64,000 bases of DNA, taken from contig OY970399.1 in the NCBI GenBank assembly GCA_963720545.1, positions 768,001 to 832,000 of the forward strand. Direction: 5' to 3'. A program made the position numbers. Origin of the DNA: an uncultured Acidobacteriota bacterium. Its GTDB lineage: Bacteria > Acidobacteriota > Vicinamibacteria > Fen-336. This document shows positions 39,301 through 48,300 of the stretch, in pieces (position 1 is the first letter of the stretch; each line of letters starts with the position of its first letter).

Positions 39301-42300
39301 GTGCGCCAGTACCGTTATCCGGTCGACGAGAGCGTCTGGGAACTGCCGGCCGGCCGGCGCGAGCCGGGTGAGACCGCGGCGGCGGGTGCGCTGCGCGAAC
39401 TGGAGGAGGAGGCGGGACTCGCCGGCGCCCAGGCCGAGGAGCTGTCCTTCTTCTATACGACGCCCGGATTCTGCGACGAGAGCATGACCATCTTTCGCGT
39501 CACCGGCCTCACCGCGGTCACGGCGCGCCCGGAAGCCGACGAACGCATCGAAATCGGCACGTTCACCCTGGCGCAGGCGCGCGCCATGATCGCAACCGGC
39601 GAGATTCGCGAAGGCAAGACGCTCGTGGCACTGCTGCTCGAAAGCCTGCGGGACTAGGCGGCGATGCCCAGTCGCTTCTGGCGGATCACGCGGCGCACGT
39701 TCATCGGCCTGGTGCTGGTGGTGCTCGTGGTGTTCGTGGTGGCCGCGCTCGGCCTCTTCCCGGAGGAGCCGCTGCGCCGCGTGGTCGAGTCGTCGCTGCG
39801 CCGGACATTCGGCCCGAACACATCGGTCGCGCGGGTGCACGTGTTCCCCGCGGGCCTGCGCGGCGAGGTCGAGGGCCTGGTGGTGGACACGCCGGCGTAT
39901 CGTCTCGAGATCCCGCGACTCGCGGCGGCGATTCGTCCCGGCACGCTTTTCGGCGGCGCGGTGCGCCTGCGCTACCTGCGCGTGCAGCAGCCGGAGCTGC
40001 GCATCAAGACGCCCAACCCGAACGCGCCGAAGACGGCTGCGGCCGACCTGCCGGCCCTCGTCCTTGCGGACGTCCAGGTGGACGATGGCCGCCTCGTCGT
40101 CGAGATGGGCGCGCGCGGCACCATCGAGAGCCGCGGCGTGCGCGCGCGCGGTGCAGTCGGCGAGGGCATCCTTGCGCTCGAGCTGCCGCAAAACACCTGG
40201 ACCCGGGAAAAGGACCAGGCGCTCGAGCTCGGCCGGATGGCGGCGCGCCTCGCCCTCGACCCGATGCTGGTTGGAAAGCTGGAGGCGCTCGACTATGCGA
40301 AAGGCGCATCGCAGGTCGCGGTCAAGGGCGCGCTCGGACGCCTCACCGAGCCGCGGCCAGACCTGGGCTTCACCGGCGCGTTGAACCTTGGCGACTTCGC
40401 CGCGCTGGCAGCGACACCCGGCTTGCGCGGCGACGTGGCTCTCACGGGCAAGGCCGCCGGTCGGCTGGATGCGCTCGCCGTATCGGTCGTCGCTACGGGA
40501 CGCGGCGTCGGTGTCCCGGACGTCGCAGTCGATGTCGACGACGCGCGGCTCGAGTACGCGGGCACTCGTGCCACGGCCGACATCAACGTGCGCGCCTTCG
40601 CCGGCCGGATCAAGGCGAACGGCTCGCTCGACACTGCCGGCGGGCGCACCGACGGCCGCGCCACGGTCGCGGGCATTGCCTTCGAGGCGCTGCCAAAATC
40701 GGCCGCGCTGCCGCCCGAGCTGCACGGGAGGCTCTCCGGCGACCTGACGTGGAACGGCGACCGCAACGGCCGCGTCGCGGTGACATCGCACCTGCGCACC
40801 GAGGCGCAGTACCAGCAGCCGCTCACCGCGAACGCGGAACTGAGCGGCAGCGTGTTCCCGAAGGAAGAGCGCCTCGACCTGCGCTTCACCACCACTGCGG
40901 AAACCCAGGGCACTGGCGCCCTGCGCTCCGGCGTGGTGCAGGCCGAGGGCACGGCGCGCGGGCCCTGGCCGCCGACGATCGAAGGCGCCGCGAAGATCGT
41001 GGTTTCGGCGGCCATCGGCGGTGCCGCGGCGACCGAGCCGCTCGAGGCGGAGACCACCTTCCGCGCTGCGGCCGCGGAGACCTCGCTGAAGGCAAAGGGC
41101 ACCTTTCTCGGCGGCACTTTCGAGGCCGGCGGTCGCCTCGCCAAGGACCGCATCGAGGACGCGACGCTTTCCGCTGTCGCGATCGAGCTGCACCGTATCG
41201 ACCCGCGCGCGGCCGGCAGCGCAAGCCTCAAGGTCGCAGCTGCCGGCAAGGCCGCGGCCCCCGACGTGGACGCTTCGTTCGCGACCGCCGGGCTCGCCGT
41301 CAACGGCATCATGCTCGACACGGCGAGCGTCACGCTCAAGGGCCCGCTGTCTGGCGCTTCGTGGACCGCGGCCGTGCCGGCGCTGAACCTCACCGGCAGC
41401 GGCCGATTCGCGAACGGCCAGGGCGGCTCCCTCAACGGCACGCTCACGGCCGAGCAGACCGACCTCGCTCTTTTCGCGCCGCTCGTGCCTCGCGTTTCCG
41501 GGCTCGCGGGCACCCTGAGCGCCACCGCCGACCTGAATGTGCCGCTGGGCGAGGGCGCCGCGCAGCGGGCCGTGGTCAGTGCGCGTGTCACCCAACTCGA
41601 GGCCCGCACCGCGAGCCTGGGGCCGGCGCAGGCCGAGCCCTTCGGCATCCGCTACGGCGGCGGCCAGGTGGCGGTGACCGGCTTCCACGGGACGGCCCCG
41701 GGGCTCGTGGCGACGCTCGACGGCACCTACGGCCTCGACGCCGGTCGTGCCGTTGCGGGCAGGGCTCGCCTGCAGGTGGATTTGTCGAAGGTCTCCGAAA
41801 GGCTGCAGAACGCCGCCGGCAATGTCGATGCCAGTTTCGAGTTCAGCGGCAACGAAACCCGCCCCGTGGTCACCGGCGCCATCAACCTCGCCGGCATCGC
41901 CGTGGACCAGCCGGGCAAGCCGACGGTTCGCGTTGCCGACGGCGTCATCCGCATCGCCGGCAACGCTGCCGTCGTCGACAACCTGAAAGCCGAGACGGAC
42001 GGCGGCGCCGTGGTGGTCACCGGACGCGTACCGGTGCCGGCGCTGGTGCGCAGCTGGCGCGCCGATCCGCTGCGCGTCCAGGGCAGCGAAGCGGCCGACC
42101 TGACCGTCTCCTGGAACGGCTTCGACGCCGGCGCGCTCCTCGCCCGCATGCGGCCGACTTCCGAAGAACGCCTGACCGCGCAGCTCACCGGCAGCCTCAA
42201 GCTATCGGGCGGCCTCGCAAGCCCCGACGAGGTCGAGGCGCTGCTCGCATCGCAACCAGCCGAGATCGCCGTGGGCGAAACCACCGGCCGCCTCGAGGGC

Positions 42301-45300: not shown

Positions 45301-48300
45301 TACCGGATGGAGCGCGCGGTGATCACCTCGCCGGTGCTGATCGAGCCGAGCACGCAGAACACGGCGGCCCTCACGCTCTCGGGCATCCGCGACACCCGCG
45401 ACGACGTGCTCGACGCCCGCCACGGCAAGTTCACGTCACTCAACCTGACGCTGGCGCCGGCGCTGCTCGGCTCGGACCAGAACTTCATGAAGGGCCTGGC
45501 GCAGGTGTTCTGGAGCATTCCCGCCGGCCGGAAGGCAACCTGGGCGCAGGGTTACCGGCTGGGTCTCGCGCACGTCTTCAGCGCCGACAGCCTGATTTCG
45601 ACCCAGGGCTTCACCGCCGGCGGCGGCAACACCATCCGCGGGCTCGCGACCGATGCCCTGCAGGGCACGCCGGACAACCCGTTCATCGGCGCCCAGGGGC
45701 TGCTGGTCATCAACCAGGAGCTGCGGGTGCGCACCGATTCGGGTTTTGGGGCGGTTGTCTTTTACGATACCGGCCAGGTGTTCGAGCGGGTGCGGAAGAT
45801 CGACCTCGACCTGCGGCACTCGGTGGGCGTCGGGCTGCGCTATTCCTCGCCTTTCGGCCTGCTGCGCGTGGACGTGGCGACTCTGCTCAACCGCCGCCGC
45901 AATCCGCTCGACGGCGCCTTCATCGACAAGAAATTCCAGTTCTGGTTCAGCCTGGGGCAGGCCTTCTAGATTCAATGACGACAAACTTCGACGCGGTAGT
46001 CGTGGGTGCGGGTGTGTTCGGCGCGTGGACGGCGTACGAGCTGCAGCGCGCCGGTCGGAAAGTGGCGCTCGTGGACCAGTACGGGCCGTCCAGCGCCCGT
46101 TCCAGCTCGGGCGACGAGAGCCGCATCATCCGCATGGGCTACGGACCCGACGAGGTGTACACGCGCTTCTCGATGCGCTCGCTCGAGATGTGGAAGGGGC
46201 TGTTCAAGGCCGGCGGCCACCAGCTGTTCCACGAAACCGGCGTCTTGTGGATGGGCCGCAACCACGACATCCGCTTCGACGCCTCGGTCGAGACGCTCGC
46301 GAGGGTGGGCGTGCCGCATGAGCTCATCGAGCGTGCCGAACTCGAGCGGCGCTACCCGCAGATCGAGCTCGGCGACATCGTCGCGGCGGTGCTCGAGCCG
46401 CAGAGCGGCGCCCTCATGGCGCGGCGCGCGGTGGCGGCGGTGGCGCAGGCCTTCGTCGCCGCGGGCGGCACGCTGCTGAACGAAGCGGCGGCGCCGCCGC
46501 CCGAGAAGGGCCGGCTCGACGCGCTTTCGCTGCGCTCCGGCGGCCGCCTCAGTGCCGGCACGTTCATGTTCGCCTGCGGCTCGTGGCTGCCAAAGGTGCT
46601 ACCCGAGGCGATGTCGAGCCGCATCTTCCCGACGCGCCAGGAGGTCTTCTACCTCGGCCCGCCGCCTGGCGACGCGCGCTTCGCGCCGCCACGGATGCCG
46701 ACGTGGCTCGACCAGGGATCGCTGTTCTACGGCATCCCCGACCTCGAGACCCGCGGCTTCAAGGTGGCGTCGGACCTGCACGGCATCCGCGTCGACCCCG
46801 ACACCCAGGAGCGGGTCGCGTCGCAGGACGGGATCGCGCGCATGCGGGCGTTCGTCGCCGAGCGCTTCCCCGCTCTCGCCTCGGCGCCGGTGGTCGAGAG
46901 CCGCGTGTGCCAGTACGAGAACAGCTGGAACGGCGACTTCGTGATCGACCGCCACCCGGCGAGCGACAACGTCTTTATCGCCGGCGGCGGCTCCGGCCAC
47001 GGCTTCAAGCACGGGCCCGCGGTTGGCGAATACGCGGCGACGTTGATGCTCGGCACGCTGGCGCGTGCCGAGCCGCGCTTTGCCTGGTCGGCGACCCGTA
47101 CCGAGCAGCTGCGCGCCGTCTACTGAAGCGCTGACGGCGCCTAGTGCAGGGTCGAGAGGATCGCGCGCAACGTGGTCGCTTCGGGAGCGGTCGGGGCGAG
47201 CGTCAGGAACTTCTGGTAATCGGCGGCCATGTTCGCGGGCTGCTTCTTGCCGTCGTAGGCCTGGCCGCGCCAGAAGAAGGCGTAGGCCTGGTCGCCTTTT
47301 GCGGTGATCGCCGCGGTCATGGCGGTGATGGCGTCGTCGTACTTCTTCAGGCCGACGAGCGCATTGCCCAGCGACGCCACCGCCACCGGGTGCGTCGGCG
47401 CCGCGGTGACGGCAGCGCGCGCCGGAGCCTCGGCTTCGGCGTACTTCTTCTGCTTGACCAGGCTGCCGGCGAGGTAGGCGCTCGCCTCGGTGCCCTTGGC
47501 CGTGCGCAGCGTCGCTTCGGCGCCGGCGAAGTTGCCGGCCTTGAACTGCGCGATGCCGGCCGCGACCGGGTCGGCGGCGGGTGCCTGGGCGAGCGGCGCG
47601 GACGACGCGCCGGCACAGGTGAGGAACACGCCCGAGGCGGCGACCAGCGCGGCGGCAAGGGCTGAGCTGCGGATGATTGCGTTCATTTTCTCTCCTCCAG
47701 CAACACGATATGACGGACGTTCGACCACGGCACCATGATGCGGCTCGTGACTTCCTGCACGTCACCGCCCTCGGTGACGATGCGCCGTACTTCGAAAACG
47801 ATGCCGATCGGGTCCGACTCCAGCACGGTGGGGCTGGTGAAGAGCGCATCGCGGGTGGCGATTTCCTTCACCGTCGTGCCCGCCGCCAGTCCGGCCGCCA
47901 TCAGGACCTCCCATTATCGACGGATTGGCGGTCGTTCGCGTCCAATCCGTCGATTTCCGTTAGTCAGTTCCCCAGGCGCTTGCGTCATGGCTTTAGTGCG
48001 TTCCCCAAGCGCTTGCGTCATGGCCTAATCGTAGTACTCCAACCCCAGGTGGGTGATGAGGTCCTCGCCCTTCAGGTGGCGCAGGGTGTTCTTGAGCTTC
48101 ATGAGCTGGATGAAGAGGTCGTGCTCGGGGTAGAGGCCGGCCGCCGTCATCGGGCTCTTGAAGTAGAACGACAGCCATTCCTGGATGCCCTTCATGCCGG
48201 CGCGCGAGGCGAGGTCGAGGAAGATCGCGAGGTCGAGGACCAGGGGCGCCGCCAGGATCGAGTCGCGGCACAGGAAGTCGACCTTGATCTGCATCGGGTA

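Follow-up and report, generated by a model that had tools for sequence, protein, structure and literature searches.

A single reading frame joins TamB to its outer membrane barrel partner

The 64,000-nucleotide stretch of an acidobacterial genome analyzed here (the window) contains a gene in which the inner-membrane-anchored lipid-bridge protein TamB and its outer membrane barrel partner are fused in a single chain. To our knowledge, TamB and this partner are separate proteins in every bacterium studied, and no publication on a TamB-Omp85 fusion was found in the literature searched. A TamB/DUF490 fusion is also absent from the accessible text of a survey of Omp85 architectures (PMC4104836), in which DUF490 has 0 occurrences.

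As reported in the first-pass annotation, the gene is one stop-free open reading frame encoding 2,101 amino acids. It lies on the plus strand and starts with ATG (39664..45969; 2,101 codons plus the stop). The upstream gene ends at 39657 and the downstream gene starts at 45975; the flanking genes are housekeeping genes and give no clue to function. The chain runs from a signal anchor through a TamB body with DUF490, six strands that end in GQRFEF, a linker, and five POTRA domains to an Omp85 barrel. The predicted anchor (residues 13 to 32; 39700..39759, plus strand, as are all features below) follows R4, R7, R10, and R11. When the whole protein was scanned, the Kyte-Doolittle mean exceeded 1.8 only in 19-residue windows starting at residues 7 to 19. 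Judged by sequence, this is the N-terminal inner membrane signal anchor of a TamB protein, and it is the only hydrophobic segment in the chain; none was found in the linker, and the same scan showed no internal signal peptide ahead of the Omp85 half. Because there is one anchor and no internal signal peptide, the Omp85 half is not exportable by itself.

An AsmA-like/DUF748-like region (residues 8 to 116; 39685..40011) gave a weak match to PF05359 (E 5.8e-08, below the gathering cut-off), which was also seen at the N terminus of 6 of 6 other fusions scanned. The Pfam TamB/DUF490 match (PF04357) lies at residues 998 to 1207 (42655..43284; 81.3 bits, cut-off 22.4). It covers only positions 5 to 237 of the 381 in the profile, coverage being nearly full in relatives (2 to 364 in L010 and 2 to 381 in G057), and a low-confidence insertion specific to the window's copy is found at about residues 1200 to 1250. 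Up to the last strand, the TamB part is colinear with Escherichia coli TamB (profile against 9xdc_B, residues 1046 to 1250 of 1259, E 2.3e-16). It scored 67.4 bits against the NCBIfam ATportTamB model NF047952, below the equivalog cut-off of 825.

According to the accessible portions of earlier work, DUF490 sits at the extreme C terminus of TamB (Heinz 2015, PMC4494059), and the C-terminal domain comprises helices and six strands, of which the last carries a beta-signal that ends in an aromatic residue (PMC12800296, PMC13119328, PMC4494059). The same elements are predicted at residues 1255 to 1363 of the fusion, but here 738 further residues follow the end of the TamB part at 1363. A helix is predicted at residues 1255 to 1274 (43426..43485; positions 306 to 325 of the AlphaFold2 model described below), the model ahead of the terminal strands (255 to 328) being of low confidence and partly below a pLDDT of 50. 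The six predicted strands occupy residues 1281 to 1363 (43504..43752; model 332 to 338, 348 to 358, 361 to 368, 375 to 381, 387 to 396, and 401 to 414), with pLDDT values of ∼60 to 80 across the block. The last of them (residues 1350 to 1363; 43711..43752), which reads GGVGQRFEF at its end, is beta-signal-like, and 32 of 32 aligned fusions share its alternating pattern with F/L/W as the final residue. The basic linker that follows (residues 1364 to 1393; 43753..43842; model 415 to 444, pLDDT ∼46 to 48) is 30 amino acids long; among 32 fusions, the median length is 20.5 and the range is 14 to 35, and the sequence is not conserved.

The Omp85 half begins with five POTRA domains (residues 1394 to 1761; 43843..44946), placed by combining the AlphaFold2 model, the POTRA Pfam matches, and superposition on BamA. 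They appear in the model as beta-alpha-alpha-beta-beta units at 445 to 512, 517 to 583, 589 to 656, 666 to 738, and 747 to 812; Pfam detects POTRA in three stretches (115.1 bits) and POTRA_2 at residues 1541 to 1606. The barrel (residues 1765 to 2101; 44956..45966) carries IRG at 1991 to 1993 and ends in FSLGQAF; its match to PF01103 at 1789 to 2101 (96.6 bits, cut-off 24) places it in the Omp85 superfamily, and the TamA, BamA, and Sam50 barrels match it with Z scores of 18 to 21. Four residues, R1992, G1993, G2098, and F2101, are invariant in 17 fusions; we take the first two to be the RG of Omp85 loop 6, and the last two form the terminal G..F. The TamB, POTRA, and Omp85 Pfam matches listed in the first-pass annotation were all found again.

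It had also called the Omp85 half TamA/BamA type, which is right as to the five POTRA domains and the barrel, but the protein is not a strict TamA. Residues 1392 to 2099 span positions 3 to 739 of the 741 in the NCBIfam BamA model TIGR03303, and the architecture, five POTRA domains plus barrel with a full-length match, is that of BamA; however, the score of 190.3 bits is below the equivalog cut-off of 297.15. TamA has three POTRA domains and a 16-stranded barrel, whereas the predicted structure shows five POTRA units, and the score against the TamA model NF047950 was 74.3 bits, below the equivalog cut-off of 625. The TamL model gave just 27.8 bits (cut-off 400).

Predicted structure of the fusion

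AlphaFold2 modeling of residues 950 to 2101 with an independent 32-row alignment gave a mean pLDDT of 76.9 and a pTM of 0.67, reproducing the earlier prediction. The structural resemblance to TamA and BamA was reproduced as well. With VIA-align, Pseudomonas aeruginosa TamA could be superposed on the barrel together with POTRA domains three to five (8us3, Z 21.3, rmsd 6.2, 514 residues aligned, model 588 to 1150); E. coli TamA (4c00) gave a Z of 20.5, and the five-POTRA BamA 9mgg_A gave 19.4 with 661 residues aligned (model 441 to 1149).

When residues 1100 to 1366 and 1388 to 2101 were given to complex prediction as separate partners, the score was 0.58, compared to 0.00 for the best of three controls; at least 55% of the contacts agreed among runs, and the partner pLDDT was at least 54. 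In calibration, 116 of 157 solved complexes attained this mark, as did 2 of 215 mismatches, and scores of 0.60 or less at that mark came from only 18 of the 157 solved complexes plus both mismatches, counts that are approximate because the alignments were self-built. The prediction hints at a contact between the two halves, in cis or in trans alike; since TamA-TamB complexes have already been solved, the score may stem from those known structures and say nothing about this protein.

Fusions are widespread in Acidobacteriota

The breadth of the family in protein databases was confirmed. Among the 62 database matches longer than 2,019 amino acids, 52 carry TamB, POTRA, and Omp85 on one protein, the window's own included, and the remaining 10, likewise long, have TamB alone. 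The junction is spanned by 16 clusters of 2,027 to 2,196 amino acids at 25 to 77% identity. In a sample of 200 other Acidobacteriota genomes, fused frames were verified in 36, a count that is a lower bound.

The genome that contains the window also encodes a separate TamB of 1,338 amino acids, directly upstream of a tamA-like Omp85 gene (G000:C1, ∼2.187 to 2.194 Mb). Canonical BamA, with 803 amino acids, is encoded at ∼0.412 Mb, so that the split operon and bamA described earlier were all located. The TamB half of the fusion is 24% identical to the split TamB over residues 843 to 1329, and the Omp85 half is 27% identical to the TamA-like protein and 21% to BamA. In this genome, the fusion is thus a third paralogous module, as had been proposed, but this does not hold throughout the family: of the 36 genomes in which a fusion was verified, 16 have no PF04357 match outside the fused frame, and therefore the fusion must supply all TamB function there. 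These 16 genomes include the one-contig G093 and G112 and the two-contig G159; in G093, BamA and the fusion account for all strong Omp85 matches. Split TamA-like barrels are kept besides the fusion in G057, G120, and G098, and some genomes have two or three fused copies.

Trees of the TamB half and of the Omp85 half are congruent, with fused forms in at least five places. A good example is the fused L077, which is sister to the split L051 with an SH-aLRT of 100% in both trees, and a tree in which the 13 split rows were held together was rejected (lnL 164 lower, p-AU 5.9e-42). The window's fusion falls within a separate clade of fused forms (29 to 33 rows) with five POTRA domains; some fusions (G112, family f39) nest among split forms and keep ∼7 POTRA domains. 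The Omp85 part of the window's fusion groups with the TamA-like ("second BamA") proteins of Acidobacteriota, and canonical BamA rows are set off from this clade by a branch with an SH-aLRT of 100%. At 11 of 13 split loci, the tamA-like gene immediately follows tamB, which is the order needed for fusion. TamB-Omp85 fusions are common in Acidobacteriota, fusion or fission has occurred several times, and therefore the covalent linkage has been tolerated again and again.

A probable working mechanism and its alternatives

Taken as a whole, the observations are best explained by a single-chain lipid bridge whose TamB strand sits in its own Omp85 barrel, and we consider this reading probable. We infer the membrane topology, the pairing in cis, and the cargo as follows. 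About 1,250 residues of TamB-type, AsmA-like beta-taco would bridge the periplasm as a phospholipid groove, and the DUF490 end, a helix and six amphipathic strands with a beta-signal-like last one, would engage an outer membrane Omp85 barrel supplied in cis by the same chain. An even number of strands should bring the chain back into the periplasm once the last TamB strand has ended, and there the short flexible linker of 14 to 35 amino acids would reach POTRA1. From this point, the five POTRA domains would lead to beta1 of the barrel, whose own terminal beta-signal would direct its insertion by BAM. With linkers down to 14 amino acids, the five POTRA domains would have to curl back towards the barrel seam, which weighs against this reading unless such a path is sterically possible. 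The most likely working state would be a hybrid barrel of the TamB strand and Omp85 beta1, as in E. coli TamAB, within one molecule; the stoichiometry would therefore be fixed at 1:1 and the partners inseparable. It had been argued that covalent joining implies a different, permanently tethered geometry, but this is not required: with the last TamB strand retained and only a short linker after it, a hybrid barrel of the E. coli geometry could form in cis. By analogy with E. coli, the function is likely inner-to-outer-membrane phospholipid transport, possibly with an added role in outer membrane protein assembly.

That the protein is mainly an outer membrane protein insertase, a BamA paralogue with a periplasmic scaffold and an inner membrane tether, seems unlikely but deserves weight. 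The five-POTRA architecture is BamA-like, the BamA model is covered over its full length, the RG of loop 6 is conserved, and TAM was first described as an outer membrane protein assembly module, as far as the available text of PMC4494059 and PMC11014939 goes. However, the TamB half is complete, its AsmA-like N terminus and DUF490 are conserved in every fusion, and recent E. coli work assigns phospholipid transport to TamB (accessible parts of PMC8593681 and PMC13119328). Insertase and lipid-bridge roles are compatible with each other. It is rather improbable that the TamB strands dock in trans, into another copy to form dimers or chains or into a separate TamA-like or BamA barrel, leaving the fused Omp85 as an anchor or independent insertase. 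In its favor, the shortest linkers may keep POTRA1 from reaching its own barrel seam, split barrels are retained in the window's genome, G057, G120, and G098, and some genomes have multiple fused copies. Against it, the fused frame is the sole TamB match in 16 genomes, and in G093 strong Omp85 matches are limited to BamA and the fusion. In addition, the halves co-diverge, as contacting partners would, and the weak predicted contact is between halves of one chain, although cis and trans are indistinguishable in it.

The chain might instead be a co-synthesis and co-export device, cut in its linker by a periplasmic protease after barrel insertion to give separate TamB and Omp85. In line with this, the linker is exposed and modeled with low confidence, contains much Arg/Lys, Gly, and Pro, and is as variable in sequence as a spacer would be. 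We nevertheless judge cleavage to be quite doubtful, for there is no conserved cleavage motif beyond F/L/W-G at the linker start, the narrow length range in 32 fusions suggests a distance constraint, and repeated independent fusion requires no protease that co-evolves each time. Finally, at a genomic GC content of 70%, long spurious frames are common, and the frame is broken in relatives L017, L041, L044, and L075, so that misassembly, misannotation, or recent read-through of a stop codon in this one genome had to be considered. The first-pass annotation had dismissed an assembly artefact, and rightly: the same architecture recurs, without stops, in 50 further frames excised from independent assemblies and checked (49 whole fused open reading frames plus L017, in which the break is upstream), and in 51 other protein clusters at 20 to 80% identity with a conserved junction. 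The artefact or read-through reading is refuted by these conserved stop-free frames and clusters and has a negligible probability.

Comparison with known systems

The comparisons below draw on the accessible portions of the cited papers and structure entries. In E. coli TamAB, the last TamB strand pairs with beta1 of the Omp85 barrel to form a hybrid barrel (PMC12800296; PMC13119328), and the TamB terminal domain likewise has six strands (PMC12800296). The E. coli complex (PDB 9xdc/9xdd and 23sp/23sq) shares with the fusion the inner membrane anchor and the DUF490 helices plus six strands. The fusion differs in being one polypeptide rather than two, with the TamB end internal and lacking a free carboxyl terminus; its Omp85 has five POTRA domains instead of three and lacks a separate signal peptide, and neither half reaches the equivalog cut-off of the NCBIfam models for TamA and TamB. 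Closer in lineage are the split tamB/tamA-like ("second BamA," ∼7 POTRA domains) operons of Acidobacteriota (Heinz 2015, PMC4494059), which are from the same phylum and Omp85 clade but consist of two genes, with a signal peptide on every Omp85, compared to a single chain.

Other bacteria offer partial parallels. An N-terminal partner domain on an Omp85 barrel is also found in PlpD (patatin-Omp85; PMC11116518) and WD40-Omp85 (PMC4104836); unlike the TamB half, these modules are passengers or accessories behind a normal signal peptide, none reaching the inner membrane. In Borrelia, where TamA is absent, TamB works with BamA (PMC5582053; PMC11361582; PMC13382580). As in the fusion, TamB is paired there with a five-POTRA Omp85, and its C-terminal domain contacts the POTRA domains; however, that pairing is non-covalent and uses the essential BamA, whereas the fusion has a covalent, dedicated paralogue and a separate BamA is kept. 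TamL-TamB of Bacteroidota (bioRxiv 10.1101/2024.10.17.618404) is likewise a lineage-specific way in which TamB has its Omp85 partner fixed in the envelope. There the partner is a lipoprotein, TamL, encoded as a separate protein; in the window's protein, it is fixed by fusion.

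Architecture of the fused gene

The fusion is encoded by one stop-free frame at positions 39664 to 45969 on the plus strand of the window, with an ATG start and 2101 codons, in DNA of about 70% GC. Pfam places TamB at residues 998 to 1207 (81.3 bits), POTRA in three stretches (best at 1615 to 1689; 115.1 bits), POTRA_2 at 1541 to 1606 (24.4 bits), and Omp85 at 1789 to 2101 (96.6 bits) on this frame, and a weak DUF748/AsmA-like match covers residues 8 to 116 (E value of 5.8e-08, below cut-off). The NCBIfam BamA model spans residues 1392 to 2099 (profile positions 3 to 739 of 741) with a score below its cut-off, and the TamA and TamB equivalogs match well below theirs. 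The sole strongly hydrophobic segment, residues 13 to 32, is preceded by four arginines and is a predicted signal anchor. No internal signal peptide was found in the chain ahead of the Omp85 part, which means that this half enters the periplasm only within the long chain.

When used as a 32-sequence profile, the TamB part aligns to residues 1046 to 1250 of the 1,259-residue Escherichia coli TamB (9xdc_B; E value of 2.3e-16), and so the two are colinear as far as the last strand. In the Omp85 part, RG at 1992-1993 is invariant, and the terminal G..F is kept. The TamB part finishes as an alternating strand with a terminal F, L, or W, both in 17 full-length database homologues and in 32 genome-derived fusions; for instance, the strand ends in GQRFEF in the window fusion and in RHxhxF in distant members. 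Judged from this pattern, the last strand is a putative beta-signal that has been kept though now internal. The linker from F1363 to the first POTRA1 strand is 30 aa long in the window fusion and has a median length of 20.5 aa (range, 14 to 35) across 32 fusions; it is rich in Gly/Pro and Arg/Lys, and its sequence is not conserved.

Some other features were apparent. Residues ~1200 to 1250 (window 43261 to 43410), between the beta-taco and the terminal helix, are an insertion relative to 31 other fusions, with a Gly/Ala-rich start followed by an Asp/Pro-rich stretch and a pLDDT under 50. This insertion is the probable reason for the short Pfam TamB match in the window copy, which is limited to profile positions 5 to 237. 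According to the precomputed Pfam annotation of database clusters, most fusions carry PF27051.

Predicted structure

AlphaFold2 was run on residues 950 to 2101 with a 32-row alignment (mean pLDDT, 76.9; pTM, 0.67). In order, the model contains beta-taco strands, a helix (1255 to 1274), six strands (1281 to 1363), a low-confidence linker (1364 to 1393), five beta-alpha-alpha-beta-beta POTRA units (1394 to 1761), and a barrel (1765 to 2101). By VIA-align, model residues 588 to 1150 match Pseudomonas aeruginosa TamA (8us3; Z of 21.3, rmsd of 6.2, 514 aligned), 592 to 1152 match E. coli TamA (4c00; Z of 20.5, rmsd of 8.3, 501 aligned), and 441 to 1149 match a five-POTRA BamA (9mgg_A; Z of 19.4, rmsd of 13.9, 661 aligned). 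As described in the available part of PMC12800296, the C-terminal domain of E. coli TamB consists of six strands and two helices, its last strand (1251 to 1259) is bonded to TamA beta1, and all three TamA POTRA domains contact TamB; in that study, cysteine pairs were also placed between the last TamB strand and beta1. In the available part of a nanodisc preprint (PMC13119328), TamB is reported to contribute six strands, embedded in the membrane, to a stable hybrid barrel.

When the chain was divided at the linker and the two halves were submitted to complex prediction, the score was 0.58, compared to 0.00 for the best of three controls. Of 157 solved complexes, 116 attained this mark, as did 2 of 215 mismatches, counts that are approximate since own alignments were used; only 18 of the 157 and both passing mismatches attained it with a score of at most 0.60. 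The runs shared at least 55% of contacts, with a partner pLDDT of at least 54. This prediction lends weak support to a contact between the TamB and Omp85 halves, and the pass may be a memory of solved TamA-TamB complexes. Because the support is weak, no interface is taken from the prediction, and pairing in cis is something that we infer.

Fused frames are widespread in Acidobacteriota

A junction query (residues 1150 to 1650) retrieved 18 non-self clusters, 16 of which are 2027 to 2196 aa long and carry TamB, POTRA, and Omp85 at 25 to 77% identity. The other two are a 1160-aa partial sequence and P0002, a 1431-aa protein from a 698-kb contig that matches the fusion's C-terminal part at 99% identity; P0002 probably reflects a gene call lacking the N-terminal part or, in a nearly identical strain, a broken copy. 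A profile search among proteins longer than 2019 aa gave 62 matches, 52 of them with TamB, POTRA, and Omp85 (the window protein included), and the remaining 10 were TamB-only proteins, e.g., from Deinococcus. The source databases name members "TamB domain-containing," "TamA," or "YaeT." Among one-genome-per-species contigs, 18 loci were found: 14 with frames of 1940 to 2208 aa, three cut by a contig end, and one (L017) with a frame break. Named records come from Vicinamibacteria, Thermoanaerobaculia (including Ca. Multivoradales), unclassified Acidobacteriota MAGs, and one Polyangiaceae MAG, and Pfam confirmed the fused architecture in all six loci scanned among them.

In an even sample of 200 other Acidobacteriota genomes, from which 40 candidate loci were cut out, fused frames were present in at least 36, two of them (G166 and G144) with a truncated Omp85 part. 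This number is a lower bound, as 75 TamB matches and the junction-spanning short frames in G060, G108, G194, and G041 stand outside the count. The tallies include the unpublished genomes G024, G049, and G152, the last with a frame outside the fused count, and the claims made here are independent of all three. Several genomes have multiple fused copies (three in G120; two each in G057, G007, G026, and G042). Left out were the contig-end fragments L012, L016, and L024, L021 (3' end cut), L068 (a 2160-aa TamB-only protein of G146), and L075; L041 and L044, with truncated Omp85 parts, were counted as fused genomes and excluded from the trees.

L075 (G141:C127, minus strand, 1665 to 7562) is a 1966-aa frame with TamB, one weak POTRA match, and then ~460 residues with no Omp85 match, and it may be a frameshifted fusion or carry a different C-terminal module. 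Frame breaks or truncated barrels also occur in L017, L041, and L044. The Polyangiaceae (Myxococcota) locus, L025 (2668 to 9147, plus strand), encodes a 2160-aa fusion nested within Thermoanaerobaculia fusions in both half-trees, a placement suggestive of either horizontal transfer or wrong binning of the contig.

Relation to the split TAM and BamA

The first-pass annotation had reported a single 2101-aa TamB-POTRA-Omp85 chain in a genome that also holds separate tamB, tamA-like, and bamA genes, and all of its factual elements were confirmed. The same one-contig genome encodes a separate 1338-aa TamB, a tamA-like Omp85 protein of ~889 aa with its own signal peptide directly downstream of it, and a canonical 803-aa BamA. 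The split TAM lies on the minus strand (L004, G000:C1:2183000-2196000), with tamB at 6860 to 10876 followed by the abutting tamA-like frame at ~6850 down to 4185; the TamA-like protein exceeds the fusion by about two POTRA-like units. The proteobacterial order, tamA-tamB, is the reverse. The TamB part of the fusion is 24% identical to the split TamB over residues 843 to 1329, and the Omp85 half is 27% identical to the TamA-like protein and 21% identical to BamA. The latter two values indicate that the window copy is an old paralogue rather than a recent read-through.

This genome, G057, G120, and G098 each have a split tamB/tamA-like pair as well as a fusion. However, in at least 16 of the 36 fusion-bearing genomes (G093, G159, G054, G074, G046, G166, G163, G117, G174, G083, G129, G070, G016, G056, G038, and G112), the sole PF04357 match with an E value up to 1e-8 sits in the fused frame, and in G093 and G159 this also holds up to 0.001. 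G040, G023, and G142 each have a single PF04357 match, which falls outside the matches listed, and are not among the 16. Missing data are unlikely to be the cause in G093 and G112, each assembled as one contig, or in G159, with two; G074 is only 79% and G166 73% complete. In G093, BamA and the fusion are the only strong Omp85 matches. Any TamB function in such genomes has to fall to the fused chain.

The fused and split states have changed repeatedly

Of 13 split loci, 11 have tamB just before the tamA-like gene, the two frames abutting or overlapping, and two (L053 and L061) have the reverse order. Split TamA-like proteins have about two additional N-terminal POTRA-like units. The fusions themselves come in two forms, one with five POTRA domains and another of 2363 to 2441 aa with six Pfam POTRA stretches, which we read as ~7 POTRA domains.

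IQ-TREE quick searches (LG+G4, SH-aLRT) gave trees for the Omp85 half, with 73 rows, and for the TamB half, with 64, that agree with each other. Canonical BamA is set apart by a 100% branch, and the window protein falls inside a clade of 29 to 33 five-POTRA fusions (99 to 100%). In the TamB tree, a 100% branch places another clade, of 9 to 11 fusions, on the same side as the split forms. The pair L069/L071 is nested among split forms, as is a 100% clade made up of the four 7-POTRA fusions of family f39, and the fused L077 (G112) is sister to the split L051 (G033) at 100% in both halves. Parsimony on the TamB tree gives four fused/split changes, and a tree forcing the 13 split rows together was rejected (lnL 164 lower; p-AU of 5.9e-42), in a test that was run after tree inspection on groups set by architecture and on quick trees whose long rows call for caution. 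Thus, the fused/split state has changed repeatedly, and its direction, fusion or fission, is not readable from unrooted counts. A single origin of all fusions was compatible with the first trees (one change; support, 56) and was rejected by 19 added fusions and the AU test.

Two f37 loci, L055 (G150) and L060 (G036), have Omp85 frames of 1045 and 1037 aa that fall within the TamA-like clade on a branch of great length (~1.5), and no TamB C-terminal match was found within either locus as cut out. TamB matches in f37 genomes are unusually weak (1e-19 to 1e-24).

A possible mechanism and its alternatives

The fusion is probably a single-chain TAM in which an inner-membrane anchor leads through an AsmA-like lipid groove across the periplasm to the DUF490 end and then to the Omp85 barrel. 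The six strands of the DUF490 end would engage this barrel, supplied in cis, and the chain, going by the usual topology of beta-signal pairing, would then be back in the periplasm beside the POTRA5-beta1 junction. Since the linker must reach POTRA1, the POTRA arm would have to curl back and close a ring. A more novel reading, which we hold to be less likely than not, is that the internal beta-signal strand (1350 to 1363) pairs with beta1 (~1765 to 1774) of its own barrel to give an intramolecular hybrid barrel of ~22 strands. The linker and POTRA arm would then close covalently into a periplasmic ring round the lipid-groove exit, TAM would act as a permanent 1:1 bridge needing no release of TamB and no free C terminus, and the five-POTRA clade would make up a third envelope-bridge lineage whose cargo or role is its own. 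The first-pass annotation had argued that a covalent chain implies a different, permanently tethered geometry. Permanent tethering holds for any uncleaved chain; a special geometry is unnecessary, as the TamB part is colinear with its E. coli counterpart to the final strand and the putative beta-signal is kept.

Other readings bear on the same evidence. The linker, variable in sequence and short in the 32 fusions measured, might be cleaved after export, which would leave two ordinary subunits; we consider this improbable. The TamB strands might instead dock in trans, on the barrel of another molecule, and to this we give an equally slim chance. A mainly insertase role for the fused protein, with its five POTRA units and near-complete span of the BamA model, is somewhat less improbable but still unlikely.

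Gene neighborhood was dropped as functional evidence. The upstream neighbors are genes for an isoleucyl-tRNA synthetase, a pseudouridine synthase, and a NUDIX protein, whose open reading frame (38902 to 39657, plus strand) ends 6 nt before the fusion start, and a DAO-type FAD oxidoreductase (45975 to 47126, plus strand) begins 6 nt past its stop; no envelope-related gene is among these neighbors. Such short gaps suggest that the fusion gene is transcribed together with these unrelated housekeeping genes.

Comparison with known systems

TamA and TamB have been studied as two proteins, and the available parts of two reports describe the E. coli hybrid barrel as a stable working state (PMC13119328) or as alternating with a decoupled state (PMC12800296). 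Natural inseparable chains that are the sole TamB in some genomes would mean that neither subunit dissociation nor a free TamB C terminus is needed and that a fixed 1:1 stoichiometry is sufficient. The fusions are also ready-made stoichiometric single-chain objects for structures of a full-length envelope-spanning lipid bridge and a model on which E. coli TamB-linker-TamA constructs can be engineered, and they raise the question of how BAM inserts a barrel whose N terminus is fixed in the inner membrane ~2000 residues away. Should the self-closing chain prove true, it would be natural proof of TAM as a permanent 1:1 inner-to-outer-membrane bridge, and the five-POTRA clade, present next to a split TAM, would count as a separate third lineage of envelope bridges.

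Full-text searches of the literature outside subscription-only papers and bioRxiv supplements turned up no natural TamB-Omp85 fusion, and none is mentioned in the available parts of PMC4494059, PMC4104836, PMC11014939, bioRxiv 2024.10.17.618404, PMC13119328, and PMC12800296. By analogy, the fusion would work in the same way as proteobacterial TamAB and as the split acidobacterial pair of tamB and a "second BamA" described by Heinz et al. 2015 (PMC4494059, available part). However, a defining feature of the TamB family is a C-terminal DUF490, which in the fusion is not C-terminal; TamA has three POTRA domains, whereas the fusion has five; its Omp85 part is without a signal peptide; and all three equivalog cut-offs (TamA, TamB, and BamA) are missed. 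The fusion is a real, conserved single-chain variant of a known machine, apparently undescribed, and the present analysis adds that fusions of this kind occur frequently, that their state has changed repeatedly, and that they are sometimes the sole TamB present.
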